DNA of 33,122 nucleotides, taken from the NCBI GenBank assembly GCA_045646995.1, contig JAZRLT010000055.1, forward strand, positions 1 through 33,122, read 5' to 3'. Of this stretch, positions 554 to 20,113 are shown in pieces. How positions within the stretch are numbered: the first letter of the stretch is position 1; each line of letters begins with the position of its first letter. Under the pieces are notes generated by a model, which searched no databases, was not told the DNA's origin, and saw only the letters and a program-made list of their open reading frames with translations. This DNA comes from Eubacteriales bacterium (GTDB taxonomy: Bacteria > Bacillota > Clostridia > Oscillospirales > CAG-382). The position numbers were made by a program, and so were the translations under genes.

Positions 554-1882
554 ATGAAAAAGAACTTTAAATTAAGGCTGTTTTCGCTCGTGTGCCTTGC
601 GGCGACGGTATTCGTTACCGCCTGCGGAGCCGAGCCCACGCCTTACGAAACCAACAACAATGATAAATATACCGTTAGCGTCAAATATGACGCTAACGGG
701 GGTATATTTACCACTAACACCTCGGTTATAGTCGATTCCTATAATATCTCCGATATGGAAAAGAATTCCGATAATATGGCTGAAATAGCACTTCTTTCTC
801 CTGACGACAATGCTCGCGGAAACGATGCGTTTAAGGCTATAAATAACGGATATTTCCTCGCAGGATGGTATGCGGGAAGAACCGAAACGACCGATTCGGA
901 AGGGAAGACGTCCTACGTTTATTCCGACAAATGGGATTTTTCGGCAGATATGTTAGAGGTTGACGCCTCTAAGGAATATTCTTCCGAAACCCCTGTGTTA
1001 ACGCTTTATGCGGCTTGGGTACCCTTGTTTAAAATTGAGTTTTTCTCGCTCGGCTCGGGAGAACATCTCAAGAGCCTTGCCTTCGACCCGACGATTACCG
1101 AGGTCATCTCCGTTCCTAAGTGGAGCGATAAGACCGGTGCAGTCGAAATGTTCGATTTTCCCGAAAAGAAGGGATATACCTTTAATAAGGCTTACTACGA
1201 CGCAGAAGGCAACAATGCGATAGAAGCCGAAGCCATAACCCATTCGGGTAAGGTTAATTACGAAACCGGCGTTGCCGAAAATTCGACCCTCAACCTCTAT
1301 ATCGATTGGACCGAGGGCGAATGGTACCGAATCTATAATGCTGATCAGCTCGCAAAGAATGCAAGTCTCAACGGCAATTACGAAATTATGGCCGACCTCG
1401 ATTTTACCGATGCTGTTTGGCCCACCGTCTTTATGTACGGTAACTTTAACGGTACTATTAAGGGTAACGGACATACTATTAAAAACGTTACTATTGAACA
1501 GACTAATAATTCCAAGGTGAACGCGGGTCTATTCGGTTATCTTGCCGAAACGTCGTCGCTTTCCGATCTTACCTTTGAAAACGTAAGCTTTACCGTAAAA
1601 GCGGGTACTCGAGTAATGGGCACCAATTACGGTATACTCGCAGGTACGATATCCAAGGATGCGGGATTGGAAAACCTTAAGCTTTCTATGAGTAAATTAC
1701 AGATCGATTCGGACTGCTACTTCGGTGTAGACGACTATTCGATCGGCTTGGTTTGCGGTATGGGTAATTATGATGCCGTCGAAACCTCCGATATCGAAGC
1801 GCTCGTGGTCGGTAACAATCCCGAAAAATTCGTTCTGACGGTTGACGGAAATACCGTAACGGTATCCGAAGCTTCCGAATGA
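554..1882 (+). CDS. Surface lipoprotein with Listeria-Bacteroides (Flg_new/InlB B-repeat)-type repeats and a GLUG-like C-terminal region
   Basis: AGGAGG lies upstream. The signal peptide has a lipobox (VTAC, Cys24). Repeat signatures are VKYDANGG...GYFLAGWY...LTLYAAW and KGYTFNKAYYD...LNLYIDW. These are followed by IYNADQL...GNYEIMADLDF...FNGTIKGNGHTIKN...NAGLFGYL, a pattern typical of Firmicutes surface-protein beta-helix/GLUG regions. Confidence 0.8.
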   Translation: MKKNFKLRLFSLVCLAATVFVTACGAEPTPYETNNNDKYTVSVKYDANGGIFTTNTSVIVDSYNISDMEKNSDNMAEIALLSPDDNARGNDAFKAINNGYFLAGWYAGRTETTDSEGKTSYVYSDKWDFSADMLEVDASKEYSSETPVLTLYAAWVPLFKIEFFSLGSGEHLKSLAFDPTITEVISVPKWSDKTGAVEMFDFPEKKGYTFNKAYYDAEGNNAIEAEAITHSGKVNYETGVAENSTLNLYIDWTEGEWYRIYNADQLAKNASLNGNYEIMADLDFTDAVWPTVFMYGNFNGTIKGNGHTIKNVTIEQTNNSKVNAGLFGYLAETSSLSDLTFENVSFTVKAGTRVMGTNYGILAGTISKDAGLENLKLSMSKLQIDSDCYFGVDDYSIGLVCGMGNYDAVETSDIEALVVGNNPEKFVLTVDGNTVTVSEASE

Positions 1883-1923
1883 TAATTACGTAATAAAAAA
1901 TAAAAATATAAAGGTGACACAGT

Positions 1924-4500
1924 ATGAACAAGAAAATCATTTCCCTAATTCTGTGCCTTGCGATGTGTTTCGGAATGGCGGCTTCCTTTACGGGCTGCTC
2001 CGATAACGGCAAGAGCGCTGACGCGTTCGTTATTATGACCGAACAGCTCGACGGTTTGTTTAACCCCTTCTTCTATACCTCCGCTCCCGACGGAACCATC
2101 GTTGCGATGACCCAGATCGGTATGCTCGGCTCCAAGTACGTTGACGGCGAAGTCAAGGTTGCTTACGGTGAAGACGAAGCGGTTGTCGTAAAGGATTACG
2201 ATATCGTTGAAAACGGCGGCAATACCGTTTATACCTTCGTTGTTAAGAACGGTATCAAGTTCTCCGACGGCCATCCCCTCACTATGGAGGATATCCTCTT
2301 TAACTACTATGTATATCTCGACCCCGTTTATACCGGCTCGAATACTCTCTATTCTACCGATATTATCGGCTTGTCCGAATACCGTACCCAGACCGTAGGC
2401 TCGGCTTCCGATGACAGCGATAACCTTATCTCCTCTCAGGCTTCCTCCCGTGCAAGCGCGAGAATCAATGAGCTCGTTAACCTCTTCCTTTCTCAGGTTA
2501 AGGCTTCTTCTACCAAGGAAGTAAGCTATGAGGCTATGAAGCAGGCTATCTCGGCTCACTCGCTCAGCAGCGGTTATAAGTCCGCTATTTCTAACGACGA
2601 GGCTTCTGTTACTAACCAGAACCTTCTCGCTGACTACGAATACGCTCTCAAGCTCTTCAAGGAAGAACTCGAAACCGACTACGTAAGCGCTCAGGAATCC
2701 TACGTTGACGAGCCTTACAGCAAGTACAGCGAATTCAAGAACGAAGTCTTCTGCTTTATGTATACCGAAGGCTACGTTGAAGTTAAATACGCTGAAGGTG
2801 CTGACGGCAAGACCGACCACACCACTATCGAAACTCTTACCCCCGCTTATCCTTCCTCTATAACCACTAAGGAAGCGGCTATCGACTATATCTATAAGGA
2901 TAAGATCGCTACCAAGCTTGATGAAATCCTCAAGTATTGGGCTACTGCTACTACCCTTAATACCGAATTTACCGCTAAGGCTAAGGAAGTTATCCTTCAC
3001 GAAAACGTTGCCGACGACGGCACTCTCGCTGTTAAGAATATTTCGGGTATCGTTTCTCTCGGTCACACCTCCGAAGCAGGAAGCACTATTACCGTTAACG
3101 GCAATCAGTATAAGGTTGCTTCGGGCCATAACTCCGACGGTACCGTTACTAACGCTGATGAATACGACGTTTTGCGTATCACCATCGACGGCGTTGACCC
3201 CAAGGCTATCTGGAACTTCGCTATTACTATCGCTCCCCAGCACTACTACGGCGAGGGAAGTAAGGTCGGCGTTGATATCGCTAACGATAAGTTCGGCGTT
3301 GAATTCGCAAGCTTCAAGTTTATGACCGATATTATCCAGTCCACCAGAAATATTAAGATTCCTATGGGCGCGGGTTCTTATAAGGCTACCAACACCAAGA
3401 ACGACGATAAACCCTCCGAAAGCGATTTCTATACCAACAACGTTGTTTACTTCAAGAGAAACGATAACTTCTCTACTGTTGGTGCAGGTATCGAAAATGC
3501 TAAGATCGAAAAGATTCGTTATCAGGTAGTAAGCTCCGCGAACGCTATCGCGGCTCTCGAAGAGGGTAACGTTCACTATATCTCTCCCTCTCTTACCACC
3601 GATAACTACGAAAAGCTCGAAAACCTCTCCTCCAAGGGTATGGTTACCCTTACTACCGATCAGCTCGGTTACGGTTATATCGGTATCAACTCCGCAAAGG
3701 TTAACGATATCAACCTCCGTAAGGCTATTATGTGTGCGATGAATACCTCTCTCGCACTAGACTACTACCGCGCAGGTACCGCTTCTCAGATCTATTGGCC
3801 TATGTCCAAGGTAAGCTGGGCTTATCCTAAGGGCGCTGCTGCTACCGATAACGGTAAGGACTATCCTCCTCTCGGTACCTGGAGTCAGGACGTTGCGATT
3901 GCTAATATCGAAAAATATATGAATGCTGCAGGCGTAAGCGCAGGCTCCTCCGAGCTTAAGGTTAAGTTCACTATCGCAGGCTCCAGCCTTCAGGACCACC
4001 CGACCTATAAGGTATTCCGTGACGCCGCTACTCTTCTTAACGGCCTCGGCTGGGACGTTGAAGTAGTTTGCGATACTCAGGCACTTACTAAGATCAATAC
4101 CGGCTCGCTCGAGGTTTGGGCTGCTGCTTGGTCCTCCGCTCTTGACCCTGACCTTTATCAGGTATACCATAAGGATTCTACCGCTACCTCTACTCTCGCT
4201 TGGGGTTATAACTACCTTAAGACGAGCGGCACCGCGGAAGAAACCGCTATCCTCGATCAACTCAGCGACCTTATCGATCAGGCTCGCGAAACCAACGATC
4301 AGAGCCTCCGTGCTACTCTTTACCAGAGCGCTATGGAACAGATTCTCGATCTCGCTATCGAGCTTCCCGTATATCAGAGAAGCGTGCTCTACGCTTACAA
4401 CTCTAACGTTATCAAGGCCTCTAGCCTCCCTGCGGAATCCGAGCTTAATCCCTTCTCCTCTCCGCTCGACCGTATCTGGGAAGTTGAATTCGCAGAATAA
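1924..4500 (+). CDS. ABC transporter substrate-binding lipoprotein, family 5 (peptide/nickel/glutathione type), oversized at 858 aa
   Basis: RBS AAAGGTGA is present, and the lipobox is SFTGC. The N-lobe signature is LDGLFNPFFYTS...YTFVVKNGIKFSDGHPLTMEDILFNYYVYLDP, with later TIAPQHYY and GYGYIGIN motifs typical of SBP_bac_5. The gene sits directly upstream of Opp/Dpp-type permease genes. Confidence 0.9.
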   Translation: MNKKIISLILCLAMCFGMAASFTGCSDNGKSADAFVIMTEQLDGLFNPFFYTSAPDGTIVAMTQIGMLGSKYVDGEVKVAYGEDEAVVVKDYDIVENGGNTVYTFVVKNGIKFSDGHPLTMEDILFNYYVYLDPVYTGSNTLYSTDIIGLSEYRTQTVGSASDDSDNLISSQASSRASARINELVNLFLSQVKASSTKEVSYEAMKQAISAHSLSSGYKSAISNDEASVTNQNLLADYEYALKLFKEELETDYVSAQESYVDEPYSKYSEFKNEVFCFMYTEGYVEVKYAEGADGKTDHTTIETLTPAYPSSITTKEAAIDYIYKDKIATKLDEILKYWATATTLNTEFTAKAKEVILHENVADDGTLAVKNISGIVSLGHTSEAGSTITVNGNQYKVASGHNSDGTVTNADEYDVLRITIDGVDPKAIWNFAITIAPQHYYGEGSKVGVDIANDKFGVEFASFKFMTDIIQSTRNIKIPMGAGSYKATNTKNDDKPSESDFYTNNVVYFKRNDNFSTVGAGIENAKIEKIRYQVVSSANAIAALEEGNVHYISPSLTTDNYEKLENLSSKGMVTLTTDQLGYGYIGINSAKVNDINLRKAIMCAMNTSLALDYYRAGTASQIYWPMSKVSWAYPKGAAATDNGKDYPPLGTWSQDVAIANIEKYMNAAGVSAGSSELKVKFTIAGSSLQDHPTYKVFRDAATLLNGLGWDVEVVCDTQALTKINTGSLEVWAAAWSSALDPDLYQVYHKDSTATSTLAWGYNYLKTSGTAEETAILDQLSDLIDQARETNDQSLRATLYQSAMEQILDLAIELPVYQRSVLYAYNSNVIKASSLPAESELNPFSSPLDRIWEVEFAE

Positions 4501-4518
4501 ATTGATAATATAAAAATT

Positions 4519-4556
4519 CGACCGATAGGGAAGGCGTAAAAGCTTTCCCTCGGTCG
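4519..4556 (+). promoter_or_regulatory. Intercistronic stem-loop between the SBP and permease genes (possible partial attenuator or mRNA-stabilising hairpin)
   Basis: CGACCGATAGGGAA (4519-4532) pairs with TTCCCTCGGTCG (4545-4556) around a 12-nt loop with a 2-nt bulge. No U-tract follows, so it is not a canonical terminator. Confidence 0.4.
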
Positions 4557-4572: not shown

Positions 4573-5565
4573 ATGCTTAAGTATATTTTAAAACGTCTTT
4601 TGATGTCCGTTTTCATACTTTTAGGCGTTTCGTTGATAATTTACTTCCTTATCCGTCTTATGCCCGTTGACTTTATCCAGGATAAGATCAACGCGATAAA
4701 CCAAGGCGGTGCGACGGTAAGTGAAGAAACCGTTAACGCTATGTATGAAATGTACGGGCTGGGCGATAACAGCTTTATCGGTATATTGAAGGGTTACTTC
4801 AGCTGGCTTGGCGCTATGGCAAGGTTTGACCTTGGTACGAGCTTTGTTTACGGTATCCCAGTTGCCGACGTTATCGTTGAACATATGGGAATATCCTTCG
4901 CTATCGCTTTGATAGCTACGATATTCGAATTTCTTATTGCTATCCCTCTCGGTATCACGGCGGCTACCCATCAATACAGCTTCCGCGATTACCTCGTTAC
5001 CGTTCTCGTTATGATCGGTATTTCTCTCCCGTCCTTCTTCTTCGGTCAGATGCTTAAGGACGTCCTTGCTCTCAAGCTTGGATGGTTCCCCGCGTCGGGA
5101 CTTGTCGATGCGACGGCGTCGTATACGGGTATAAGCCTTCTTATCGACTATTTGAAGCATTGCTTTATACCTATTCTTACGATAGTTATTCTCAGTATCG
5201 GTGCGAGAATGAGAATGACAAGAACGAATATGTTGGAGGTTATGAACTCCGACTATATCCGTACCGCCCGTGCAAAGGGCTTGAAGGAAAGCGTTGTCGT
5301 TAATAAGCACGCCTTCCGTAACACCCTTATTCCGATGGTAACCTCGCTTGCGGGCTTGTTGCCTTCGCTGTTTTCGGGTGCAATTATCACCGAGCAGGTA
5401 TTCGACCTTCCCGGTATCGGTAACATCGCTCTCGATGCGATGAACCGCGGCGATATTCCGTTTATAATGGGCTATAATATGTTCCTTGCGCTCTTAAGCG
5501 TAATCGGCGTTCTTCTCGCCGACCTTATGTACGGACTTGTCGATCCCCGTGTAAAACTTGAATGA
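4573..5565 (+). CDS. ABC transporter permease, OppB/DppB-like
   Basis: GGAG lies 7 nt upstream. The N-terminus MLKYILKRLL and the motif SDYIRTARAKGLKESVVVNKHAFRN (EAA loop region) are typical of the OppB/DppB family. The protein has multiple TM helices. Confidence 0.95.
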   Translation: MLKYILKRLLMSVFILLGVSLIIYFLIRLMPVDFIQDKINAINQGGATVSEETVNAMYEMYGLGDNSFIGILKGYFSWLGAMARFDLGTSFVYGIPVADVIVEHMGISFAIALIATIFEFLIAIPLGITAATHQYSFRDYLVTVLVMIGISLPSFFFGQMLKDVLALKLGWFPASGLVDATASYTGISLLIDYLKHCFIPILTIVILSIGARMRMTRTNMLEVMNSDYIRTARAKGLKESVVVNKHAFRNTLIPMVTSLAGLLPSLFSGAIITEQVFDLPGIGNIALDAMNRGDIPFIMGYNMFLALLSVIGVLLADLMYGLVDPRVKLE

Positions 5566-5576
5566 GGAGGCGCGTG

Positions 5577-6647
5577 ATGGAAGATATTACCAAAGAAGCT
5601 ATCGAAGGCGAAGTTGATACCAAAGCGGTTGAAACCGAAGAAATCGATACCGACGTGCCTTTAGATAAAACCGTCAAGCTTATGTCCCCGACGCGTATGG
5701 TCGTTCGTAGATTTTTCCGCTCGAAGCTTAGTATCGTCGGTCTAATAATGGTCGTAAGCCTTTTCGTGTTCAGCTTTATCGGTCCCCTTGTCTATACTCA
5801 ATGGGGCGAAATCGAGCTTGATGAAAGCGGTAAGACCGAATATTCGGTCTCCCAAACCACTTATACGGTAAACGGTAAGGAATATACCCTTCGCCAGACT
5901 ACCGAAAAATCTCTTAAGGATAATTTCCTTGCTCCCCCCTCTGCCGAGCATATTCTCGGTACTGATAACGAAGGCTACGATATTTTCGTCCGTCTTATGT
6001 ACGGTGGTAGAATTTCTCTTATCGTAAGCTTTCTCGCCGTTTTCCTTATTACCGTTTTGGGCGTGTTCCTCGGCGGTGTTGCGGGATTCTTCGGCGGTGC
6101 GGTAGATAATATAATAATGCGACTTTGCGATATTCTTATCTGCCTTCCCGGTATTCCGATCCTTCTTATTATAAGTACGATCCTCGACGCGTCCGAAATC
6201 GACGCTAAATACCGTATCTACCTTCTTATGATTTATCTTACCTTTATTTCTTGGCCGGGTACTGCCCGCCTTGTAAGAGGTCAGATACTCTCTCTCCGTG
6301 AACAGGAATATATGGTTGCGGCGGAGGCTATGGGCTATTCCGCTCCCAGAAAGATATTTAAGCATCTCGTTCCCAACGTTATGCCTCAGCTTATCGTTTC
6401 GATGAGCTTGAGCTTGGGTAGTATGATTCTTTACGAAGCTACTCTTTCGTATTTGAACCTCGGCGTTAAAGCTCCCTACGCCGCTTGGGGTACGATGATC
6501 AATATTATCTCCACTAATCAGGATATTCTCCAGAATCACCTTAACGTATGGGTTCCCGCAGGTATCTGTATCGTTATCGCGGTTCTCGGCTTTAACTTTA
6601 TCGGCGACGGTCTCCGCGACGCGCTCGACCCGAAAGCGAGGAGGTAA
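5577..6647 (+). CDS. ABC transporter permease, OppC/DppC-like, with an extended N-terminal and extracytoplasmic loop region
   Basis: AGGAGG at 5566-5571 favours ATG 5577 over the ORF-track ATG 5562. The motifs HILGTDNEGYDIFVRLMYGGRISL and EQEYMVAAEAMGYSAPRKIFKHLVPN are OppC-type signatures. Confidence 0.9.
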   Translation: MEDITKEAIEGEVDTKAVETEEIDTDVPLDKTVKLMSPTRMVVRRFFRSKLSIVGLIMVVSLFVFSFIGPLVYTQWGEIELDESGKTEYSVSQTTYTVNGKEYTLRQTTEKSLKDNFLAPPSAEHILGTDNEGYDIFVRLMYGGRISLIVSFLAVFLITVLGVFLGGVAGFFGGAVDNIIMRLCDILICLPGIPILLIISTILDASEIDAKYRIYLLMIYLTFISWPGTARLVRGQILSLREQEYMVAAEAMGYSAPRKIFKHLVPNVMPQLIVSMSLSLGSMILYEATLSYLNLGVKAPYAAWGTMINIISTNQDILQNHLNVWVPAGICIVIAVLGFNFIGDGLRDALDPKARR

Positions 6648-6650: not shown

Positions 6651-7808
6651 ATGAGTAAAAATAATGTAAACCGCCTCACCGGTAAAGAGATTCGCGCTAT
6701 TGCGAAGGAAAATAAGAAAATCATTAAAAAGTTAGAGGCGTATAAAAATCGTAAATGCGACGAGACCGAATATCTCGGCCATATGTCCGACGAATCCAAT
6801 ATCCTTGAAATCGATAATCTTCATACCTACTTCTTCACCGAACAGGGTGTCGTAAAGGCGGTCAACGGCGTTTCCTTCGACGTTCCCAAGAATACGACGG
6901 TCGGTATCGTTGGCGAATCGGGTTGCGGTAAGTCGGTTACGAGTATGTCGGTAATGCGCCTTATACAAGGCCCCGCAGGTCAGATTTTTTCGGGCAGTAT
7001 CCGCTTTAACGCGAAGACTGCTTCGGGTGAATCGAAGGTATATGATATCGCGAAAATGCCTATGCGCGATATCCATAAGATTCGCGGTGACCAGATCGCT
7101 ATGATATTCCAAGAGCCTATGACCTCGCTAAACCCCGTGTTTACTATCGGTCAACAGCTCGATGAGGTTACGTTTATTCATAACCCCAACGCTACTAAAG
7201 AGGAAGCAAAGGCAAAATCGATAGAGATGCTCGACCTTGTCGGCATCGCTATCCCTGAACGTGTTTATAATTCCTTCCCCCATGAGCTTTCGGGCGGTAT
7301 GCGTCAAAGAGTTATGATCTCTATGGCGCTTGCAAGCAATCCCCGCCTTATTATCGCCGACGAGCCCACTACCGCGCTCGACGTTACGATTCAGGCTCAG
7401 ATACTCGATCTTCTCCGCGATTTGAAGTCTAAAATCGACGGCTCTATAATGCTTATCACCCACGACCTCGGTATAATCGCCGAAATGGCTGATTACGTTG
7501 TCGTAATGTATGCGGGAAGAGTTATCGAAAAGGGTACTGTTGAAGAGATTTTCCATAATCCTCTCCACCCATATACGATAGGACTCCAAAAGTCCAAACC
7601 CACTCTTAATTCCGACAGCGATACGCTGTTCAATATCCCCGGTAACGTACCTAATCCGGTAAATATGCCGAATTACTGTTACTTCAAGGAAAGATGCTCT
7701 AAATGTATTAAAAAATGTTCCGGCGATTATCCCGGAATGGTTCAGGTAAGCCCGACTCATTTTGTGGCTTGCCACCTTTACGGAGAGGAGGCTGAGAATA
7801 ATGGCTGA
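6651..7808 (+). CDS. ABC transporter ATP-binding protein, OppD/DppD-like, with a ~50-aa basic N-terminal extension
   Basis: GGAGG RBS is present. It has Walker A GESGCGKS, signature LSGGMRQR, Walker B LIIADEPTTALD and an H-loop ITHDL. The C-terminal oligopeptide-ATPase Cys motif is CYFKERCSKCIKKC...VACH. Confidence 0.95.
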   Translation: MSKNNVNRLTGKEIRAIAKENKKIIKKLEAYKNRKCDETEYLGHMSDESNILEIDNLHTYFFTEQGVVKAVNGVSFDVPKNTTVGIVGESGCGKSVTSMSVMRLIQGPAGQIFSGSIRFNAKTASGESKVYDIAKMPMRDIHKIRGDQIAMIFQEPMTSLNPVFTIGQQLDEVTFIHNPNATKEEAKAKSIEMLDLVGIAIPERVYNSFPHELSGGMRQRVMISMALASNPRLIIADEPTTALDVTIQAQILDLLRDLKSKIDGSIMLITHDLGIIAEMADYVVVMYAGRVIEKGTVEEIFHNPLHPYTIGLQKSKPTLNSDSDTLFNIPGNVPNPVNMPNYCYFKERCSKCIKKCSGDYPGMVQVSPTHFVACHLYGEEAENNG

Positions 7809-9092: not shown

Positions 9093-11888
9093 ATGAGAAA
9101 TCTTAAATCATTTATGCCAAGAAGCCTCGTTTCGATGATTGCGCTTCTTCTTGCGGTAGTTTTCTGTATGTCGGCGCTCGTTTCTTGCGATAACGGCGGA
9201 GATGAAAGCAGTAACACCTCCGGTTCGGAAGCATCAGGCGAAAAGGCTACCTACACCGTAAGCGTTAAATCTAACGGCGGTGTTCCTCTTTCCGGTCTTG
9301 ATATCTATATCTATAAGGGCGCGGAATTGAAGGATATGAAGGAATTCTCCAAAACCAACGAAAACGGCGAGATAACCTTCAGTCTTCCCAAGAGCGACGA
9401 TTACTTCATCGTTGTTTCGGGCGCACCCAAGGGCTACAAGGTTGAGAAAAGCTATGGATTTGTAGGTACCTCCTCGGCGATAGTTCTTACCTCTTCGCTC
9501 GTTACCGGAGAGGATATCTCGACCGCTCAGCTCGGAATCGGTGACGTTATGTATGATTTCACCGTTATGAATTCCGAAGGTCAGGAAGTAAAGCTTTCCG
9601 AGGTGTTCAAAACTAAAAAGCTCGTCGTTCTTAACTTCTGGTATACTACTTGTAGCTGGTGTCTCGAGGAATTCCCCCTTATGGAGGAGCTTTATCGCGA
9701 CTATAAGGAAGACGTTGAAATTATCGCGCTCGACCCGCTCGACGACGCTAATGCCGTCAAGAGCTTCCGCGCTCAGCACGGTCTTTCCTTCCCGATGGCG
9801 GCTTGTCCTTCCTCTTGGTCGGCTGTGTTCGGCGTTCAGGGTTATCCTACCTCGGTATTTATCGACCGCTACGGTACTATCTGTATCGTTGAATCGGGCG
9901 CTATCACAAGCAAGCGTCCTTGGATAAGCGCGTTTGACCATTTCACCGCTGATAATTACAAGCAAAAGATCTGTACTAACGGTATCGGAGACCTTGTTTC
10001 TCAGGTTAAGCCTACCTATACTATGGATACTACCGAAAATATCTCCGCTCTTATCAATAACGGCGATATTGAGGTTACCTACCGTGCGGAGACCGATTCC
10101 GATACTGCCGAATTCACTTGGCCCTTTATTGCGGGCGAAAAGCTCGGCGAGAACTGTATCTACGCTTCCAATAAGGGTATCGACGGTTCCTACGCTATTA
10201 TTTACGCTGACGTGACTCTTAAAAAGGGTCAGGCAGTAGGATTCGATTATCTCGTTTCCTCTGAATACGGCTGCGACATAATGTACGTAATCGTTGATGA
10301 CGACGATATCTACCAGATCTCGGGCGTTTCCGATAAGGAGGAATGGAAGTCCTGCTATCCCTGCGTAGCCGAAGAGGATGGCACCTACGAGATCGCGCTC
10401 TGCTTCCTTAAAGATGAGGACGGTACCGAGGGCGACGACACCGTGTATATCAAGAATATGCGTGTCGTTGACGAAAAGGACATCGATACCGATTCCTATT
10501 TGCCCCGTTATGCGGCTACGAGCGAGGATGGATTCGAGTTCGATTACGTTGACGTAGTATTCAACGAAAAGGACGGATATTACCACGTCGGCTCGGCTAA
10601 CGGACCTCTTCTTCTCGCTGACCTTATGGGATATACCCAGTTCAATGAAGAAAAATCCGTTTTCGATATCGTTACTGCGGGAGACGCTGATAAGGGCGGA
10701 GTAAGCCTTTATAATAAGGTTGCCGAAGGCGGCTTGGGAATGGTTGATTACTTCTCCTATGCTTCCAATTCTCGACTTAACGGTGTTTGTACCGTAAATA
10801 AAGAGCTCGGCGAAATGCTAAAGCAGGTTGCTGAGGTTGCAGGCTTTGAGGATGATTCCAACGAATGGCTTAAGATATGTAAATATTTCAAGGCATACGG
10901 CAAGGGCAATACTCAGCTTGAGGACCCGATAAAGGGACTTGCTACCTTCAGCGCGTATGAAACTAAGCTCGGCAAGAACGTTTCTACTAACTATTTCCAA
11001 TACGATAGAGCGATCATCCCGAGAGGTATGTTCTCTCGCTTCACTCCTTCTAAGTCGGGCGTTTACCGTTTCAGCTCCAAGAGCGATTATGCCGAGGGCA
11101 TAGATGCTTGGATCTTTAATGAAAAGGGCGAAATAATTTACACCTATGAGCTTTCCGAAAGAATGTGGAGCGATTCGAATAACTGTTCCATGGTATACTA
11201 TATGGAAGCAGGTAAGTCCTATTATATTAATATGGCGTTCTGGGACGTTTATGCTACCGGTAGAATCAACTATGACGTTGAATATCTTGGAGCTACCTAT
11301 AAGCTCTTCCGTTCGGCTTCTCCCGGATACTTTACCTATGATTCCGACGCTACCGGAGAGGTAATGTACGACGTTATAAGCGGCGGTATAACCCCTGTAT
11401 TGAAGGATGGCAAGTATTACGACTCCGAGGACGGAAGCCTTATTTACGCTGACTTTACCGGTGTTACCAACCTCTTTGGACATTCTATCGTTGAAATGAT
11501 AGAAATGGGCGGCTTCGACTTCAGCAAGTCTGAAACCGACGGTGAGGTTCTCGCATATCTCAAACAGAATGATAACGACGTAGAAAAAACCAAGGAATAC
11601 CTCAAAAAGCTTTGGGGCGAGGAATACGACGCTAACGCCGACATCTATCAGCTCGAAGACGTTTTTTCCGGAAGATATCACGGAAAGGGCGAAGATCTTA
11701 CCGAAGAAATTCGCGCTTATAAGAGCAAGATGGATAAGTCCTCTACCGAAAAGGACGGATGTGTTGTTGTCGATGAGCGCTTGGTTGAAATACTCCAAAA
11801 GCTTATGGATAAATATACCTTTGAGGGTGTTGAAAACTCTTGGCTCAAGGTGTGCTACTACTATGACTACCTCGGACCGGCTAAATAA
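9093..11888 (+). CDS. Multidomain lipoprotein (931 aa): prealbumin-like beta-sandwich, TlpA/ResA-like thioredoxin fold (CSWC), jelly-roll-like domain, PPC-like domain and two copies of the uncharacterised DGYYH/W-x3-C-Y module
   Basis: RBS AAAGGAG is present and the lipobox is LVSC. The beta-sandwich is YTVSVKSNGGVPLSGLDIYIYKG...GAPKGYKVE. The thioredoxin fold is LVVLNFWYTTCSWCLEEFP...GVQGYPTSVFIDRYG, with the CxxC codons at 9651-9662. Module copies lie at about 10572-10890 and 11410-11870. Confidence 0.9.
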   Translation: MRNLKSFMPRSLVSMIALLLAVVFCMSALVSCDNGGDESSNTSGSEASGEKATYTVSVKSNGGVPLSGLDIYIYKGAELKDMKEFSKTNENGEITFSLPKSDDYFIVVSGAPKGYKVEKSYGFVGTSSAIVLTSSLVTGEDISTAQLGIGDVMYDFTVMNSEGQEVKLSEVFKTKKLVVLNFWYTTCSWCLEEFPLMEELYRDYKEDVEIIALDPLDDANAVKSFRAQHGLSFPMAACPSSWSAVFGVQGYPTSVFIDRYGTICIVESGAITSKRPWISAFDHFTADNYKQKICTNGIGDLVSQVKPTYTMDTTENISALINNGDIEVTYRAETDSDTAEFTWPFIAGEKLGENCIYASNKGIDGSYAIIYADVTLKKGQAVGFDYLVSSEYGCDIMYVIVDDDDIYQISGVSDKEEWKSCYPCVAEEDGTYEIALCFLKDEDGTEGDDTVYIKNMRVVDEKDIDTDSYLPRYAATSEDGFEFDYVDVVFNEKDGYYHVGSANGPLLLADLMGYTQFNEEKSVFDIVTAGDADKGGVSLYNKVAEGGLGMVDYFSYASNSRLNGVCTVNKELGEMLKQVAEVAGFEDDSNEWLKICKYFKAYGKGNTQLEDPIKGLATFSAYETKLGKNVSTNYFQYDRAIIPRGMFSRFTPSKSGVYRFSSKSDYAEGIDAWIFNEKGEIIYTYELSERMWSDSNNCSMVYYMEAGKSYYINMAFWDVYATGRINYDVEYLGATYKLFRSASPGYFTYDSDATGEVMYDVISGGITPVLKDGKYYDSEDGSLIYADFTGVTNLFGHSIVEMIEMGGFDFSKSETDGEVLAYLKQNDNDVEKTKEYLKKLWGEEYDANADIYQLEDVFSGRYHGKGEDLTEEIRAYKSKMDKSSTEKDGCVVVDERLVEILQKLMDKYTFEGVENSWLKVCYYYDYLGPAK

Positions 11889-11917: not shown

Positions 11918-13168
11918 ATGAAAACCAAAAGATTTTTAAGCCTTATAACGGCTGCCGTGCTTCTCTGCACGGCGGTCGTCCTCGGCGCTTGTAACGATAG
12001 CGGCGAGTCGAGCCTTCCTGCCGAAATGGAATATAAGGTTAACGTAAAAGATGCTCTCGGTAACGTTCAAAGTGCGGGCGTTATCGTTAAGTTCTTGAAG
12101 AACGGCGAGCAGGTTGCTATGGAGACCTGCGCGGAAAACGGAACCGTGGCGAAGACTCTTGCTACGGCTGAATATGATATCGAGCTTGCGTTTACTGCGG
12201 GTGCCGACGCTTTCTATTACGAAGCGGGTAAGGTTACCCCCGAAAAGACCGAGATCGATATGATCGTTTCCGCTAAGGTTACCTCCGAACCCCAAACAAT
12301 TAACGTAGGCGCCGATGAATACGATATGTATTATGTTGACGGCGGATGTACCTACGTCGAGCTTTCTACCGAAAAGCGTAACTATTTTGCCTTCGCTCCC
12401 AAGGCGTCGGGTAAATATAAGTTTTCGGTTATCGGCGCCGCTGACGTCAAGCTCGGATACCACGGCGCTCCCCATTTCGTTCAGGAAAACAATATCGCCG
12501 AAATGACCGACGGATATTTTTGTATTTCCGTCAGAGACGGTATGATAGGAACGGGTGATACCGGTACCGCGACCTACGTTATCGGTATTGATGCCGAAAG
12601 CACAAAGAATTGTATTCTTGCTATCGAGCGTATCGGAGACCCCGAAAAGTCCGTTGAGGACGAGCCTTGGACGGTCTATAAGACCACCGTCGAGTTGAAG
12701 GAATACGATCTCCCCGAGGGCGCGGCTCTTAAGGAATTCGATCTTACTGCTTCTACCGACACCTATAACCTCGTCTTTAACGAGGCCGACGGCTTCTATC
12801 ATCTTAATTCCGCCGACGGTCCTCTCGTGCTCGTTCGTCTTGATGAGGATAGCGATTATATCGCTTCCTTCGGTACGATGCTCGAGCGCTCGGGTCTTTC
12901 TAAGTATTTCTACGACGATAAGGGCGAGTTCGTTAAGAGAGAAAGCTATTCCGAATGTATAACCGAATATCTCGAATACGTAGACCTTAACGAGGGCGTT
13001 TACCCTATGACCGAAGACCTTAAGTATATTATTCAACAGCGCGGCGATTATGTCGGCTGGTGGAACCCCGAAAGCTCTTCATATATCTTTAAGGATATGA
13101 ACGGTAATAACCTTACCGATATTAATAACGAAATAGCTTGGCTTCTTATGAGCTGCTATATCGAATAA
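11918..13168 (+). CDS. Lipoprotein (416 aa): prealbumin-like beta-sandwich, PPC-like domain and the uncharacterised DGFYH...TEDL...W-x3-C-Y module
   Basis: RBS AAGGG is present and the lipobox is LGAC. The beta-sandwich is YKVNVKDALGNVQSAGVIVKF. The PPC-like region is YFAFAPKASGKYKFSVIGA. The module is FNEADGFYHLNSADGPLVLVRL...YPMTEDLKYIIQQ...AWLLMSCYIE. Confidence 0.85.
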   Translation: MKTKRFLSLITAAVLLCTAVVLGACNDSGESSLPAEMEYKVNVKDALGNVQSAGVIVKFLKNGEQVAMETCAENGTVAKTLATAEYDIELAFTAGADAFYYEAGKVTPEKTEIDMIVSAKVTSEPQTINVGADEYDMYYVDGGCTYVELSTEKRNYFAFAPKASGKYKFSVIGAADVKLGYHGAPHFVQENNIAEMTDGYFCISVRDGMIGTGDTGTATYVIGIDAESTKNCILAIERIGDPEKSVEDEPWTVYKTTVELKEYDLPEGAALKEFDLTASTDTYNLVFNEADGFYHLNSADGPLVLVRLDEDSDYIASFGTMLERSGLSKYFYDDKGEFVKRESYSECITEYLEYVDLNEGVYPMTEDLKYIIQQRGDYVGWWNPESSSYIFKDMNGNNLTDINNEIAWLLMSCYIE

Positions 13169-13177
13169 GGTATGGTT

Positions 13178-14038
13178 ATGAGAAATAATAAGAAATGTTT
13201 TATCGCGTTACTGATACTCGCTTGTTTATGTGTTTCGATGGCTTTGTCGGGTTGCGAAAGCTCGGTAGAACCGTCCGATGATTCCGTATCGGGGGACTAT
13301 CAGTATGCGGTTAAGGTCGTTACCGAGGGCGGAATGCCCTTGGCTAACGTTCAGGTTAAGGTTTTTAACCGCGGAGACAGTCTTGTTTTTGCGGGATATA
13401 CCGATAAAGAGGGAAGTCTTACCTTCGCTTCTCCGCAATATGGTCTTAATGCGGTGCTTTCCGAGCTCCCTAAGGGTTATCGATGCGACGCTGCACAACC
13501 CTTGAACGAAAAGGAAAACAAGATCGTTGTAAAAACCTTTTTTGTAGGTACCGATATAGTCGGTAATAAATATACGCTCGGAAGCATTGTCGATGACTTT
13601 TCGGTTACCGCAGTAAACGGAAAAACCTATAAGGTTTCCGAGTTACTCGAAACCAAGAAAGCTGTCGTGCTTAACTTCTGGTTCGAGAATTGCGGACCCT
13701 GCCGAATGGAATTTCCTTATCTTAACGAGGCGTATAACGAGTATAAGGATAAACTTGAGGTTATTGCGATAAGCCCTGTTGACAGCGAAAACGCCGTTTC
13801 CGCTTACGCAAAGGATATGAAGCTTGATTTTCCGATGGTTTCGGCAAATCTCGAATGGGAACAAGCCTTCGGATTCGGCGGATATCCCACGACGGTTGTT
13901 ATAGACCGCTACGGAATGGTAGCCATGATGCATACCGGCGCGGTTACCGACAAGGAAGCGTTTGCTTCGATGTTCGAGCATTTTACTTCGGACGAATATA
14001 AACAAGGCGTTGTAAAAAATCTCAGCGAACTCAAATAA
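13178..14038 (+). CDS. Lipoprotein: prealbumin-like beta-sandwich fused to a TlpA/ResA-like thioredoxin fold (CGPC)
   Basis: TAAGGT spacing favours ATG 13178; ATG 13172 is an alternative. The lipobox is LSGC. The beta-sandwich is YAVKVVTEGGMPLANVQVKVF...LPKGYRCD. The thioredoxin fold is AVVLNFWFENCGPCRMEFP...GFGGYPTTVVIDRYG, with the CxxC codons at 13691-13702. Confidence 0.9.
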   Translation: MRNNKKCFIALLILACLCVSMALSGCESSVEPSDDSVSGDYQYAVKVVTEGGMPLANVQVKVFNRGDSLVFAGYTDKEGSLTFASPQYGLNAVLSELPKGYRCDAAQPLNEKENKIVVKTFFVGTDIVGNKYTLGSIVDDFSVTAVNGKTYKVSELLETKKAVVLNFWFENCGPCRMEFPYLNEAYNEYKDKLEVIAISPVDSENAVSAYAKDMKLDFPMVSANLEWEQAFGFGGYPTTVVIDRYGMVAMMHTGAVTDKEAFASMFEHFTSDEYKQGVVKNLSELK

Positions 14039-14057: not shown

Positions 14058-15197
<1,140 letters not shown>

Positions 15198-15252
15198 TAA
15201 AATACAAAAATTTGATGCGATTAAACATAATCAAATTGAAGGGAGAACAAAA

Positions 15253-15684
15253 ATGAAAAGAATTTTGTTTGTCTTGCTCGCTTTGACTTTGGTGTTCGGT
15301 CTTTGCGCTTGCGCTACTACTACCGACGTAAGTAAGGCGCCTTCCGATGCCGACGTCAGCAAGACCGAATCCAAGGAAGAATCCAAAGAGGCTTCCAAGG
15401 AAGAATCCACCCCTGCTTCGCTTCCTGAATTTGTAGTCAAGGTTGTTGACGCCGAGGGTAACCCTGTTGAAGGTGCTATGATTCAGGTATGTAAAGATAC
15501 CTGCGTTCCTATGAAGAGTAATGCTGAAGGTAAGGCAATATTCAATATTACCGTTACCGACGGCTATAAGCTTTCTGTTCTTGCTTGTCCCGCAGGCTAT
15601 GAATATACCGGCGAAGCCGAGGTTTATTTGGAAAGCGGAATTACCGAATATACCGTAGAATTGGCGAAGGTAGTTTCCGAATGA
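15253..15684 (+). CDS. Small lipoprotein (143 aa) consisting of a signal, a K/E/S linker and a single prealbumin-like beta-sandwich module
   Basis: GAAGGGAG RBS lies before ATG 15253; the ORF-track start at 15184 is a GTG overlapping the upstream gene. The lipobox is LCAC. The module is FVVKVVDAEGNPVEGAMIQVCKD...CPAGYEY. Confidence 0.8.
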   Translation: MKRILFVLLALTLVFGLCACATTTDVSKAPSDADVSKTESKEESKEASKEESTPASLPEFVVKVVDAEGNPVEGAMIQVCKDTCVPMKSNAEGKAIFNITVTDGYKLSVLACPAGYEYTGEAEVYLESGITEYTVELAKVVSE

Positions 15685-16730
15685 AAAAAATAACTTTCGT
15701 GCTTTTTCTGGTGTCGGTAGTTGCTTTTGCGATGATTTTGGGCGCTTGTAACGATTCTTCGGATAATAGCTCTTCGGTGGATAATTCCGTAAATGGATCT
15801 ACCTCCGTTTCGTCGGGTAATAACTCCGAAAACGTTTCCGGCTCTGCTGATAACGACGCGTCGAATGACGCTTCCTTCGAGTCGGGCGTAAACGCTTCCG
15901 ACGGAGTAAGTGACGCCACCGACGAAAGCGATAATTCGGATGTTGTTGATAATTCCGACGAGGATAATACCTCCGATGGAAGCGAAAACTCCGATGAAAG
16001 CGACGAATCCGATAATAACGGCGCGTCCGACGACAGCACTGTTCCCGACGACAGCTCGGATGAAAGCTCTGAACCCGAGGTTGTCGGAAGCGGAACCGAG
16101 GCTGATCCTTATTTGGTTATTCCGGATGAGGATATGCATCTTGTAACCGTAAATATCCCCGCAGGTAAAGACGTATATTACAACATTTACCGTGTCGGCG
16201 GAATGAATCTTAAGATTAAGTCCAAAGACGTTTACATCATTTATGACGGAAAGACCTATAACCCTAAAAGCGGAACCTTGTCGCTCTCGATTGAAGATGC
16301 TATGGCGAGTGAAGCAATTTCTTTCCGAATAGGCAATAACGCTTCAAGCGAGCAATCCTTCGAGCTTGTCTTCTCCAACCCGACCGGTTCTTATATGAAC
16401 CCCACCAAGGTGGATGATCTCAAGGATGAAAATTTCATCGAGCTCGAGGCGGATAACGCTGTCGGCCATTACTATAAGTATATTGCCGAAAAGAAGGGTA
16501 CTATTGTATTCGCTATGTCCGCTACCGCTGACAGCACTTTGTCAGTTACCAATAACCGCAACTCCGCCCAGAGAACTACCGAAGCGGACGGCTCGGCTGA
16601 CGGCGACGTGAAATACGTCGAGATCGAGGTCGAAAAGGGCGACGAATTGATTATTAACGTCGGCGCTCTCCCGAATCGACGCGGTAAGTATCCTGCAACC
16701 GATATCACTTGGTCTGCTGAATACAAATAA
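15681..16730 (+). CDS. Lipoprotein (349 aa) with a ~110-aa Ser/Asp/Asn-rich linker and two PPC-like beta-sandwich modules
   Basis: An ATGA start/stop overlap joins it to the upstream gene. The lipobox is LGAC. The modules start at GSGTEADPYLVIP and PTGSYMNPTKVDDL. The HYYKYIAEKKGTIVF-type strand resembles modules in the dockerin protein. Confidence 0.8.
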   Translation: MKKITFVLFLVSVVAFAMILGACNDSSDNSSSVDNSVNGSTSVSSGNNSENVSGSADNDASNDASFESGVNASDGVSDATDESDNSDVVDNSDEDNTSDGSENSDESDESDNNGASDDSTVPDDSSDESSEPEVVGSGTEADPYLVIPDEDMHLVTVNIPAGKDVYYNIYRVGGMNLKIKSKDVYIIYDGKTYNPKSGTLSLSIEDAMASEAISFRIGNNASSEQSFELVFSNPTGSYMNPTKVDDLKDENFIELEADNAVGHYYKYIAEKKGTIVFAMSATADSTLSVTNNRNSAQRTTEADGSADGDVKYVEIEVEKGDELIINVGALPNRRGKYPATDITWSAEYK

Positions 16731-16736
16731 TTCCCC

Positions 16737-16765
16737 TTGCGCATAATGAAAAATTGTGCTAAACT
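16737..16765 (+). promoter_or_regulatory. Candidate sigma-A promoter for the dockerin-protein gene
   Basis: TTGCGC (16737-16742), a 17-nt spacer, then an extended -10 TGcTAAACT (16757-16765). It lies in the largest gap (91 nt) of the cluster. Confidence 0.3.
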
Positions 16766-16821
16766 GTTGAAGTAATGCTATGGAAAATAGCTTTACAAAT
16801 AAAATTTATAAGGAGAAACTC

Positions 16822-18894
16822 ATGAAAAACACTATGAAAAAAGCTCTTAGCTTGCTCGTGGTTTTCGCTATGGTTTGCGTTCCTATGATCGCAAGTGCAG
16901 CTGTTGGTGATGGCGTGGCTATGCCCAGCGATTGCATTTATAGCGGCGATTACGTAACTGTTGAAGCCGGCGCTACTACCTACTTTGAAATCGGTACCGG
17001 TATGACCGCAGGTACCTATGGCTTCGTTGTTGAAGGCGAAGGCGATTTTGACGTTGCTGTTTGTACCGAAGGCAACGGCGAATATCCTTACGCTGAAGGC
17101 GAAGCTGTTTCTGCTGTTGATGGCGTTGTTGAAACCGAAATCACCAGCTTTGAAAGCACTTATAACTACGCTGCTTTCGCTATCACCAACAACAGCGAAA
17201 ACGATGTTGACTACCTCGTAACTATCCTCTTCCCCGAAGGAACTCAGGATAACCCCAAGGCTGTTACTCTCGCTGTCGGAACCCCTGTTGAGGTTACCAT
17301 CGCAGCAGGCGTAACCTACTATATCGGCGCTTCTCTTCCTATGATGAACACCGAATATAATCTTACCGTTACCGGTGCCCCCGGCTTCTATTACGGCGGC
17401 GGTATGATGAGACCCAGCCCTGACAACAATGGTACCTACACCGCTACCGTTTCCGCTTCTATGTTCAGTGGCGGTATGGCAAACTTCAATATCTCTAACG
17501 GTACTGAAGAAGAACAGACCTATACTCTTACCCTTGAAAATATGCCTGCAGGCGCTTCTGAAGGTAACCCCGAAATCATCGAAGTATCCGATTTTTACAC
17601 CACTTCGTTCTCCGAGCATTTCTACTCCTTCACCGCTACCGAATCCGGAACCTTCACCGTTTCTATGTCTTCTGAAGAAGGCTGGATGTATCAGATCAAC
17701 GGTATTACCGCAGATTATGATTACTACTACGGCGATATGCACTGGTGTGACGACGATCCCGTTGTTATGTCCGAATCTATCGACGTAAACGCAGGTGACG
17801 TATACACTATTTACGTTGGTTCTTATATGTCCGACGAAATGGTTTACTGGTCCTTCAATTTCGAAGCTAAGACTCTTGGCGAAAAGCCCCTTTACAACGA
17901 AAACGGCGCTGACGGCTACCTTTCCGTAACCGATTCCTATGTTGATTACGATATGAATGGTGATTTCGTATACACCATCTTGGAATTCACCCCTGACGAA
18001 GCAGGTAACTATATTATCGATCTCGCAGGCGGCGCGATGGCAGGTATCGTTTCCTACAACGGTATGTGGGTTACTATCGAACCCTCCGCTGATGTTGTAA
18101 ATATGTCTACTATTGAGTGGGAATGCACCAGCGTTGGTCAGACTATCTGGGTTGCAGTTATTGCTGAAACCGAAACCGTTTCTATCAACGTTTCCTATGA
18201 AGAAGTTGTTGTTGTAGTAATTCCCGAATATGATTACGAAAACGTTGTAACTCCCGAGGAATTCGTATACAACGGCGATACCGCTGACTTCGATTACGTT
18301 GAAACCTTTGACGATATCGTTGATAACGCGGTTCTCGGTGATGATGGCTACTACCACCTCAACTCTGCTGACGGCCCCGTTCTCTTCGCTTGCCTCAACG
18401 ATGACCTTATGTCTCTCGTAGGCGCAAACACCTACGGTCAGCTTACTTACGTTGAATATGACGAAGATGGCAACGTGGTTTCCAAGACTCATTATGCAAT
18501 CGCATTCGAAGAATATGCAGCTTGCGCTTACACCGATGATGCGGGCTATATGTACTATCCTCTTACCGAAGACCTTATCGTTATGTTCCAGAACGTTGGC
18601 GCTAATAACGGCTGGTATGGCGAAAACGGATTCGTAGGCGGCGATATCGAAGATGCTTGGATGTTCGCTTGCTACTATGACGAAGAAGTTACCACTATCG
18701 AACCCGTTGTTGAACCCGAATACGACCCCAACGGCGACGGCGAATTCAATATGTTCGACTATGTATTCGTTAAGGCTACCGTTCTCAGCAACGATGCTTC
18801 CGAAGAAGAAATCGCTGCTGCTGACGTAAACGGCGACGGCAAGCTTAATATGTTCGACTATATTGCTGTTAAGTCTGCATATTTCGCAATCTAA
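16822..18894 (+). CDS. Secreted dockerin-bearing protein with several PPC-like modules and one DGYYH...TEDL...W-x3-C-Y module
   Basis: AAGGAGA RBS lies before ATG 16822 (MKNTMKKALS). The signal peptide has an ASA-type cleavage site and no lipobox. The module is DDGYYHLNSADGPVLFACL...YPLTEDLIVMFQ...AWMFACYY. The C-terminal dockerin has duplicated segments DPNGDGEFNMFDY and DVNGDGKLNMFDY. Confidence 0.9.
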   Translation: MKNTMKKALSLLVVFAMVCVPMIASAAVGDGVAMPSDCIYSGDYVTVEAGATTYFEIGTGMTAGTYGFVVEGEGDFDVAVCTEGNGEYPYAEGEAVSAVDGVVETEITSFESTYNYAAFAITNNSENDVDYLVTILFPEGTQDNPKAVTLAVGTPVEVTIAAGVTYYIGASLPMMNTEYNLTVTGAPGFYYGGGMMRPSPDNNGTYTATVSASMFSGGMANFNISNGTEEEQTYTLTLENMPAGASEGNPEIIEVSDFYTTSFSEHFYSFTATESGTFTVSMSSEEGWMYQINGITADYDYYYGDMHWCDDDPVVMSESIDVNAGDVYTIYVGSYMSDEMVYWSFNFEAKTLGEKPLYNENGADGYLSVTDSYVDYDMNGDFVYTILEFTPDEAGNYIIDLAGGAMAGIVSYNGMWVTIEPSADVVNMSTIEWECTSVGQTIWVAVIAETETVSINVSYEEVVVVVIPEYDYENVVTPEEFVYNGDTADFDYVETFDDIVDNAVLGDDGYYHLNSADGPVLFACLNDDLMSLVGANTYGQLTYVEYDEDGNVVSKTHYAIAFEEYAACAYTDDAGYMYYPLTEDLIVMFQNVGANNGWYGENGFVGGDIEDAWMFACYYDEEVTTIEPVVEPEYDPNGDGEFNMFDYVFVKATVLSNDASEEEIAAADVNGDGKLNMFDYIAVKSAYFAI

Positions 18895-20112: not shown

Positions 20113-20113
20113 A

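Follow-up and report, generated by a model that had tools for sequence, protein, structure and literature searches.

The stretch of DNA analyzed here (hereafter the window) comprises all 33,122 nucleotides (nt) of contig JAZRLT010000055.1 of an Eubacteriales bacterium (Oscillospirales, CAG-382; assembly GCA_045646995.1), and its subject is the gene cluster between positions 554 and 18894. The open reading frames (ORFs) judged to be genes in this interval number 14, are tightly spaced and all lie on the plus strand; their products are a complete family-5 (Opp/Dpp-type) ABC importer with its solute-binding protein (SBP), a tail-anchored protein of 80 amino acids (aa), the lipoprotein g01, six further lipoproteins and one dockerin protein (Table 1). 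The shortest junction is an 8-nt overlap (7801/7808) and the longest a gap of 91 nt (from 16730 to 16822, if g13 starts at 16822), while for g11, whose ORF was called from GTG 15184, the likeliest start is ATG 15253. Searches against Pfam and NCBIfam returned one SBP_bac_5 protein, two BPD_transp_1 permeases (one with OppC_N), two ATPases with ABC_tran and oligo_HPY, three proteins with Redoxin/AhpC-TSA domains and one with Dockerin_1. Lipoboxes were recognized in g01, the SBP and six downstream proteins, and the last protein, g13, carries a leader of the signal-peptidase-I type. Recurring modules were confirmed by all-against-all BLAST, with a prealbumin-plus-thioredoxin pair occurring three times and a DGYYH unit common to g07, g08, and g13. 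A preliminary description of the window, made from its letters and ORFs, had reported the uniform strand, the range of junctions, a complete family-5 uptake system (SBP, two permeases, two ATPases) and seven exported proteins built from recurring modules, among them three CxxC thioredoxin folds and a dockerin, all of which was borne out.

Table 1 Features of the window that are discussed in the text (positions count from the first nucleotide of the window)
Feature	Positions	Strand	Evidence and remarks
S8 protease 3' end, last 166 codons, C-terminal membrane anchor	3-503	+	72% identity to C-terminus of 2579-aa ORF of locus L088
g01, 442-aa lipoprotein, fold unassigned	554-1882	+	lipobox VTAC
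Family-5 solute-binding lipoprotein (SBP), 858 aa	1924-4500	+	SBP_bac_5 PF00496 E 8.8e-26, two stretches, above gathering score
ABC permease, OppB/DppB type	4573-5565	+	BPD_transp_1 E 8.6e-34
ABC permease, OppC/DppC type	5562-6647	+	BPD_transp_1 E 2e-30, OppC_N E 4.6e-9
ABC ATPase, OppD type, Cys-rich oligo_HPY C-terminus	6651-7808	+	ABC_tran, oligo_HPY
ABC ATPase, OppF type, oligo_HPY C-terminus	7801-8796	+	ABC_tran E 6.8e-34, oligo_HPY E 3.7e-22
Conserved 80-aa tail-anchored protein	8813-9055	+	YIDDGRTIADMS motif, single C-terminal transmembrane helix aa 60-78
g07, 931-aa lipoprotein: prealbumin-like + ResA/TlpA-type thioredoxin (CSWC 9651-9662) + C-terminal beta-sandwich/helical modules	9093-11888	+	Pfam, NCBIfam, AlphaFold2 model
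g08, 416-aa lipoprotein: prealbumin-like + PPC/collagen-binding-domain-like beta-sandwich + C-terminal DGFYH...WLxxCY module	11918-13168	+	AlphaFold2 model
g09, lipoprotein: prealbumin-like + thioredoxin (CGPC 13691-13702)	13172-14038	+	AhpC-TSA E 2.1e-19, Redoxin, Thioredoxin
g10, lipoprotein: acidic linker + prealbumin-like + thioredoxin (CHWC 14886-14897)	14058-15197	+	Pfam; 63% identity to g07 aa 50-289
g11, 143-aa lipoprotein, one prealbumin-like domain	15253-15684	+	lipobox LCAC; weak SpaA, CarboxypepD_reg matches
g12, lipoprotein: acidic linker + two domains without assigned family	15681-16730	+	beta-sandwich character from motif resemblance only, without model
g13, secreted 704-aa protein (start 16780, possibly 16822)	16780-18894	+	g08-sandwich-like repeats by motif, DGYYH unit 18343-18357, dockerin
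Intrinsic-terminator-like hairpin	18914-18941	+	12-bp stem, 4-nt loop, T-rich tail; closes co-directional unit
SpoIVB gene	18947-20011	-	next after terminator, opposite strand

The limits first drawn for the unit, 554 to 18894, proved too narrow, and the 80-aa gene had been overlooked. The co-directional unit begins upstream of 554, because positions 3-503 hold the 3' end of a co-directional protease gene that is cut by the contig end, and in relatives the protease is accompanied by two membrane proteins, here named FeTrx and c12. At the other end, the hairpin at 18914 is the sole strong intergenic terminator-like site, weak sites being no more numerous than in shuffled sequence; the earlier statement that it is the only terminator-grade hairpin holds between genes. 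A hairpin with a stem of the same length lies inside the coding sequence of g01 (672-699, perfect 12-bp stem, CCGTTAGCGTCA AATA TGACGCTAACGG), followed by a mixed tail with no clean T run.

In order to follow the cluster across genomes, relatives of g08 were scanned in one genome per species, which gave 152 stretches, and the best 80 loci were analyzed with flanks of up to 10 kb, a simple longest-ORF procedure for gene calling, and tblastn together with ORF clustering for the comparison. All of these 80 loci come from metagenome-assembled genomes (MAGs) of animal guts, labelled Eubacteriales, Clostridia, Oscillospiraceae, Acutalibacteraceae, Ruminococcus and similar. Their constant core consists of g07, g08, a thioredoxin gene (TRX), g11, and g12, followed by g13 or a paralogue of g08. 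The gene order of the window was found again in at least 26 other species, and the cluster is therefore not due to chance. In relatives the order reads FeTrx and c12 in reverse orientation, then the protease, g01, the importer, the small 80-aa protein and the lipoprotein cluster. For instance, a locus with 85-92% identity to the window (L101) holds FeTrx and c12 on the minus strand and the protease on the plus strand, followed by g01, the SBP, permeases, ATPases, the 80-aa gene and g07, inside which the locus ends; a relative with a g08 57% identical (L102) has the same order, and the rest of its lipoprotein cluster is found on the same contig (L001).

At least 2.5 kb of sequence upstream of g07 was available in 55 loci, of which 26 have the importer and the 80-aa gene directly upstream (type A) and 29 do not. 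Among the latter, 22 extend at least 8.5 kb downstream, and in 13 of these 22 the lipoprotein cluster comes first and is followed by FeTrx and c12, again reversed, and the protease gene (type B); the continuation from the protease into g01, the SBP, permeases, and ATPases was seen on one contig (L081/L099). The FeTrx-to-importer block is also present in a further locus anchored on g01 (L100), where the lipoprotein cluster may lie upstream. Overall, 39 of 48 informative species loci show linkage between the lipoprotein cluster and the protease-importer block, in two permuted orders. Among the loci anchored on g01 or the SBP, all five with enough upstream sequence (5/5) have reversed FeTrx and c12, followed by the protease, ahead of g01/SBP. 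Co-occurrence of importer and lipoprotein genes in related genomes had been named beforehand as an observation without which the proposed coupling would fail, and the 39 of 48 loci bear it out. As this linkage has survived rearrangement, it is the strongest context evidence here for functional coupling. For one locus (L088), the reading that it has the importer block but lacks the lipoprotein cluster was considered and dropped, since reversed FeTrx and c12 lie upstream of its protease as in type B and the cluster may be located beyond the flank. In a subset of type B loci (L042, 8344-10608, and nine others; ORF cluster c18) the order is g07, g08, g13, g11, and a 750-aa repeated-module protein with a C-terminal transmembrane (TM) anchor takes the place of g12.

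The 2579-aa ORF of L088, to which the protein fragment at the start of the window is related, combines Peptidase_S8, PA, fn3_5, Big_2, and BspA-type LRR_5 domains, and its first 1000 residues match C5a peptidase (7edd, E 1.8e-70), SpyCEP and entries named 'cell envelope proteinase' (E 1e-61 to 1e-70). In the close relative L101, a homologue of 2407 aa stands at the same place, which puts the full protease at ~2400 aa. The complete gene in relatives thus encodes a multi-domain S8 cell-envelope proteinase, the C-terminus of which is contained in the window; the product of 3-503 has a TM segment (aa 130-148), a basic tail and a weak Firmicu-CTERM match, and no LPXTG motif was found in it.

FeTrx (502 aa) and c12 (280 aa; both lengths and the minus strand as in L101) form a gene pair that was also recorded in L017 (4717-6936, minus strand) and in L099-L102. 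FeTrx consists of NapH/MauN-type Fer4_5 repeats (CX3CP), two 4Fe-4S ferredoxin motifs, a basic stretch, a TM helix and a C-terminal Redoxin domain with the motif CTPC, which is present in 16 of 18 FeTrx sequences. It is related to the NapH/MauN family without being a member (TIGR02163, E 1.8e-21, 76.8 bits vs. a cut-off of 213; NapH equivalog, 58.8 vs. 234). The basic stretch before the TM helix, read by the positive-inside rule, places the predicted Fe-S part in the cytoplasm and the thioredoxin part outside. The second protein, c12, is a polytopic membrane protein with a C-terminus that matches the NCBIfam 'CD1871A family CXXC motif' domain, and the pair is a candidate CcdA-independent electron conduit. 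Neither CcdA nor DsbD was seen among the window genes at 1-29066 (Pfam) or among the named recurrent neighbours of the 80 loci, over which no CcdA/DsbD profile was run.

The importer has the architecture of the Opp/Dpp type, with SBP_bac_5, two BPD_transp_1 permeases and two oligo_HPY ATPases. Its SBP matches Opp4A (E 4.7e-26) with 91 bits vs. a cut-off of 650 and, over part of its length, NikA (E 5e-12) with 45 bits vs. a cut-off of 393, and thus belongs to neither curated family; the nearest solved structure is AppA of B. subtilis (E 2e-11). The protein is ~300 aa longer than usual, with an insertion of ~240 aa (aa ~207-445, 2542-3258) between its two Pfam-matching stretches. Between species the importer proteins are 80-96% identical, compared with 47-62% for g08 and 30-55% for g09, g11, g12, and g13 of the same species (window and loci L001-L082), and the transporter is under much tighter constraint than the surface proteins. 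The gene g01, with 1967 homologues and no match in Pfam, NCBIfam or the sequences of the PDB, lies upstream of the SBP gene in 10/10 metagenome loci with upstream sequence and also in L099-L102. The 80-aa gene directly follows the second ATPase gene every time, holding the same position in 28 loci, and its product may be an accessory subunit of the transporter.

Three proteins of the second half, g07, g09, and g10, carry thioredoxin domains of the TlpA/ResA type, with a CxxC thioredoxin fold above Pfam cut-offs and an extracytoplasmic tethering predicted from their lipoboxes. By sequence matches these domains are closest to ResA and to Etrx1/2 of S. pneumoniae; the domain of g07 matches ResA 4nmu (E 6.9e-18) and g09 matches the ResA subfamily with E 1.8e-26, under its cut-off. 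All curated cut-offs for ResA, StoA, DsbE, and TlpA were missed, the best score being 93 bits for ResA vs. a cut-off of 170. A peroxiredoxin identity of the AhpC-TSA matches was ruled out, because their motif W-x-x-C-x-x-C typifies TlpA/ResA. The CxxC is kept in orthologues, as CSWC or CTWC in g07 and as CGPC in 42 of 69 TRX genes, CGPC being the canonical reductase motif. The second TRX gene, g10, is a lineage-specific duplicate of the g07 N-terminus and occurs only in the window, L001, and L003. One thioredoxin protein of L001 (12131-13009) bears its own dockerin, and lipid-anchor and cohesin-dockerin tethering therefore appear interchangeable here.

Beyond the thioredoxin domains, no significant match in Pfam or NCBIfam, even at E ≤ 1, was obtained for g01, g08, g12, g13 outside its dockerin, the C-terminal region of g07, the SBP insertion or the 80-aa protein, and full-length g07 matched no PDB sequence outside its thioredoxin domain. 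Homologous clusters of g08 number 1219; g11 is present in 68 loci and g12 in 57. The C-terminal region of g07 (644 aa), which includes its DGYYH unit (10572-10586), retains 73-80% identity across species. A second CxxC, CYPC (WKSCYPC, 10353-10364), is found in this non-thioredoxin region and in 44 of 77 ORFs of the g07 cluster, some of them fragments. A motif W-[LM]-x-x-C-[YK]-Y ends each DGYYH-type unit, twice in g07 (10866-10886 and 11841-11861) and once in g13 (18658-18678). At the corresponding position of the g08 C-terminus (13145-13165) there is an invariant cysteine, in addition to the (near-)invariant one at aa 347; the two could form a stapling or redox-active pair. In an alignment of 21 sequences C144, C347, and C413 of g08 are invariant, and in one of 90 sequences C413 is invariant and C347 present in ≥ 90%. 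The C-terminal module of g08 shares 30% identity with g13, which ends in a type I dockerin (18721-18873, aa 648-698; PF00404, Dockerin_1, E 5.3e-10).

Searching 1.84 billion representatives (50% clustering) with a profile of the g08 family yielded 1113 proteins at E ≤ 0.001, 359 of them at E ≤ 1e-30. Many of the matches have a length of 900-1800 aa and carry the g08-like unit at their C-terminus, and in 38 of 39 long proteins ending in this unit a Redoxin domain is found at the N-terminal end. According to BLAST, the order in the fused proteins is g09-like (prealbumin plus thioredoxin), g12-like, prealbumin repeats, g08-like, and one gene of the fused type belongs to a cluster like the present one (L103). 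Genes that are separate in the window are thus fused elsewhere, which argues that the thioredoxin and the unassigned modules act as one physical unit. The AlphaFold2 model of g08 (90 sequences, pLDDT 88) comprises a prealbumin-like domain, a beta-sandwich and a C-terminal alpha/beta module without a convincing match; for the sandwich, Foldseek retrieved the s3b collagen-binding domain of ColG, the claudin-binding C-terminal domain of the C. perfringens enterotoxin (CPE), and PliG (TM-score ~0.5, ~110-130 aligned columns). For the C-terminal region of g07 (pLDDT 80), only jelly-roll binding modules were retrieved (CBM16, MAM, ColG-CBD and the C-terminal domain of VesC). Neither model gave a catalytic or ligand-specific fold in Foldseek.

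Past the terminator, the minus-strand genes at 18947-24175 encode SpoIVB, a DtxR/MntR-type repressor, a DUF3792 protein, a PdaC-like protein and GerA, and this downstream region of the window is rich in sporulation and germination genes. SpoIVB neighbours the lipoprotein cluster in 13 of the 80 loci, upstream in some and downstream in others. A mobile-element origin was ruled out by the even composition across the window.

We read the window, with a probability of roughly one half, as holding most of a ~28-kb system with which uncultured gut Oscillospirales would forage for protein at the cell surface, an apparatus that would bind, reduce, cleave, and import disulfide-bonded proteins. The gene context suggests that these uncultured gut Clostridia may break disulfides extracellularly before digestion and import. 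A capture-reduce-import apparatus had already been put forward in the preliminary description; co-occurrence, the upstream S8 protease, FeTrx as a possible electron source and the thioredoxin-module fusions lend it partial support, within boundaries wider than those first drawn. As substrates, proteins or peptides are made likelier than free glutathione disulfide (GSSG) or cystine by the presence of the protease. From the gene content, domains, CxxC motifs, export signals, linkage, fusions, and binding-type folds we infer the activities, the direction of electron flow and the substrate as follows. The lipid- or dockerin-tethered proteins g07, g08, g11, g12, and g13, with their prealbumin-like, collagen-binding-domain-like and DGYYH modules, would hold a protein substrate, the disulfides of which would be opened by the ResA/TlpA-type CxxC domains of g07, g09, and g10. 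Electrons would come from the cytoplasm by way of FeTrx, possibly with c12, and not by CcdA/DsbD. The giant cell-envelope S8 protease would then cut the unfolded substrate, and the 858-aa SBP would bind the resulting peptides, including Cys-containing ones, for import by the Opp-type ABC transporter.

FeTrx and c12 may constitute an unrecognised, ferredoxin-driven route that carries reducing power across the membrane of strict anaerobes, independent of CcdA/DsbD, which would power a surface apparatus that unlocks disulfide-cross-linked proteins (e.g., mucins, immunoglobulins, digestive enzymes, plant storage proteins and inhibitors) for the protease and the importer; we consider this route and these substrates, taken together, possible but doubtful.

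Several observations weigh against the foraging system as a whole. The sequence scores of the SBP stay far short of the cut-off for each curated SBP family, and its insertion is unexplained. TlpA/ResA-type proteins of known systems serve dedicated partner proteins, not nutrients. The generic beta-sandwich modules, as modelled, could bind carbohydrate as well as protein. In 9 of the 48 informative loci (type C), neither the importer nor FeTrx was found within 10 kb of the lipoprotein cluster. The electron path through FeTrx is conjecture, and the topology of FeTrx and c12 comes from a crude hydropathy scan. Finally, all genomes are uncultured MAGs.

The partner-protein role of known thioredoxin lipoproteins leads to the alternative that deserves most attention: an ordinary peptide-foraging pair of cell-envelope proteinase (CEP) and Opp, in which the thioredoxin lipoproteins keep cysteines of the machinery reduced, repair the oxidative damage suffered by a strict anaerobe or isomerise disulfides in the course of assembly, comparable to Etrx1/2 and MsrAB2. 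We regard this as unlikely on balance, while giving it real weight. The closest solved relatives, ResA and Etrx1/2, do act on dedicated partners (PMC3914529), and potential clients are at hand in the conserved cysteines of g08 (C144, C347, C413), the WLxxCYY motif of g07 and g13 and the CYPC of g07; fusions of thioredoxins to modules would be equally expected if the modules were the clients. Nevertheless, no Msr or other known client enzyme was found in the window or among recurrent neighbours, three to five thioredoxin-fold proteins and a dedicated Fe-S membrane protein would be a heavy outlay for housekeeping, and the modules linked to thioredoxins show binding-type folds. Some of the same proteins could be read as serving reductive uptake of a solute other than a peptide (nickel, copper, iron, a metallophore, or an oxidised sulfur or selenium compound), with FeTrx and the thioredoxins as the reductases and an SBP resembling NikA/CntA. 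Part of the SBP matches NikA with E 5e-12, the prealbumin-like domain of g09 has a weak match to the NikL family (E 0.004), and FeTrx resembles the NapH/CcoG polyferredoxins, CcoG being a cupric reductase and TlpA serving copper-site assembly. Both the window and L001 have a gene for a DtxR-type repressor further downstream. This solute-uptake role is very unlikely, given that the NikA, NikL, and CcoG-type matches are far under curated cut-offs, whereas the best SBP matches are the peptide binders Opp4A and AppA, that the invariant neighbour is a cell-envelope protease, and that the DtxR gene stands on the other strand past the terminator and is not a recurrent neighbour.

It is most improbable, in our view, that the two halves are independent and adjacent by inherited synteny, with the lipoprotein cluster serving, for example, sporulation in the manner of StoA. 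The loci in which the lipoprotein cluster stands alone (9/48), the SpoIVB neighbour on either side in 13 loci, the weak StoA matches and the abundance of sporulation and germination genes downstream in the window speak for such independence. Inherited synteny alone would not, however, predict a linkage kept in two gene orders over dozens of species; the junctions are short, with no strong internal terminator, StoA scores lie far under the cut-off, and adjacency to SpoIVB was seen far less often (13/80 loci) than linkage to the protease-importer block.

Many abundant proteins of the gut lumen resist proteases by virtue of their disulfides, e.g., mucin domains, IgA, pancreatic enzymes, defensins, and plant protease inhibitors, and extracellular proteolysis by gut anaerobes is poorly understood apart from lactic acid bacteria and Bacteroidota. 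If true, the proposed system would offer a testable mechanism for nitrogen and sulfur acquisition by uncultured Oscillospirales (reductase arm, electron supply, protease, importer), would give candidate functions to large unannotated families (the g07 C-terminal region, g08 with > 1000 representatives at 50% clustering, g12, g01, and the 80-aa protein) and would point to a possible way, other than CcdA/DsbD, of moving reducing power out of the cell. In the literature searched, no description of this gene combination, of FeTrx-type fusions or of the CD1871A family in this role was found, which is no proof that none exists.

Some known systems are comparable in single parts. The type I dockerin of g13 recalls the dockerin-bearing proteins of cellulosomes. 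FeTrx shares Fer4_5 CX3CP repeats and two 4Fe-4S motifs with the NapH/MauN/CcoG polyferredoxins, from which it differs by the additional TM helix and C-terminal Redoxin domain and by the absence of any Nap, Mau or Cco partner. Haemophilus HbpA/Dpp is a family-5 SBP importer of thiol compounds, and GsiABCD of E. coli imports GSSG while its Opp imports glutathione (PMC11719327). The transporter architecture is shared with these systems (SBP_bac_5, two permeases, two oligo_HPY ATPases), whereas a specific resemblance to GsiB or HbpA was not detected, the SBP of the window is ~300 aa longer with its insertion, and the protease context points to peptides and not to free glutathione. The membrane-tethered CxxC thioredoxin fold is common to the TlpA/ResA/StoA/Etrx oxidoreductases of Firmicutes, with ResA, Etrx1, and Etrx2 as best matches; in S. 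pneumoniae, Etrx1 and Etrx2 together with CcdA serve MsrAB2 (PMC3914529). In contrast, the thioredoxins described here score under the curated cut-offs, share their polypeptides with prealbumin-like and large binding modules, and have a protease, an importer and an Fe-S membrane protein as linked neighbours, with no Msr or cytochrome-c client found nearby.

Two systems resemble the proposed one in their overall logic. In keratinolysis, an S8 keratinase acts together with a disulfide reductase or sulfitolysis, so that the concept of reduction followed by subtilase cleavage is alike, the comparison being one of concept and not of homology; keratinolytic systems are not known to form one dedicated conserved cluster with surface thioredoxin lipoproteins and an importer. 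Closest in its working is the proteolytic system established for lactic acid bacteria, in which CEP (PrtP) acts with Opp (PMC7783315, PMC10535647). It likewise joins a giant surface-anchored S8 subtilase (PA, fn3-type) to a five-component family-5 importer, and the logic would be the same, with proteins cut outside and peptides imported; for its PpiC-type maturase PrtM there is no visible counterpart, as no rotamase domain was found in g01 or the other lipoproteins of the window. Unlike in lactic acid bacteria, the protease and importer genes are contiguous here, and the protease bears BspA-type leucine-rich repeats and, in place of LPXTG, a C-terminal TM anchor. The system further comprises three to five extracytoplasmic proteins with thioredoxin folds, binding lipoproteins rich in modules, and FeTrx, a membrane protein that combines polyferredoxin and thioredoxin. 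The proposed reductase arm is an addition absent from the CEP/Opp paradigm of lactic acid bacteria, and the cluster possibly includes, together with several unannotated families, a new route for exporting reducing power.

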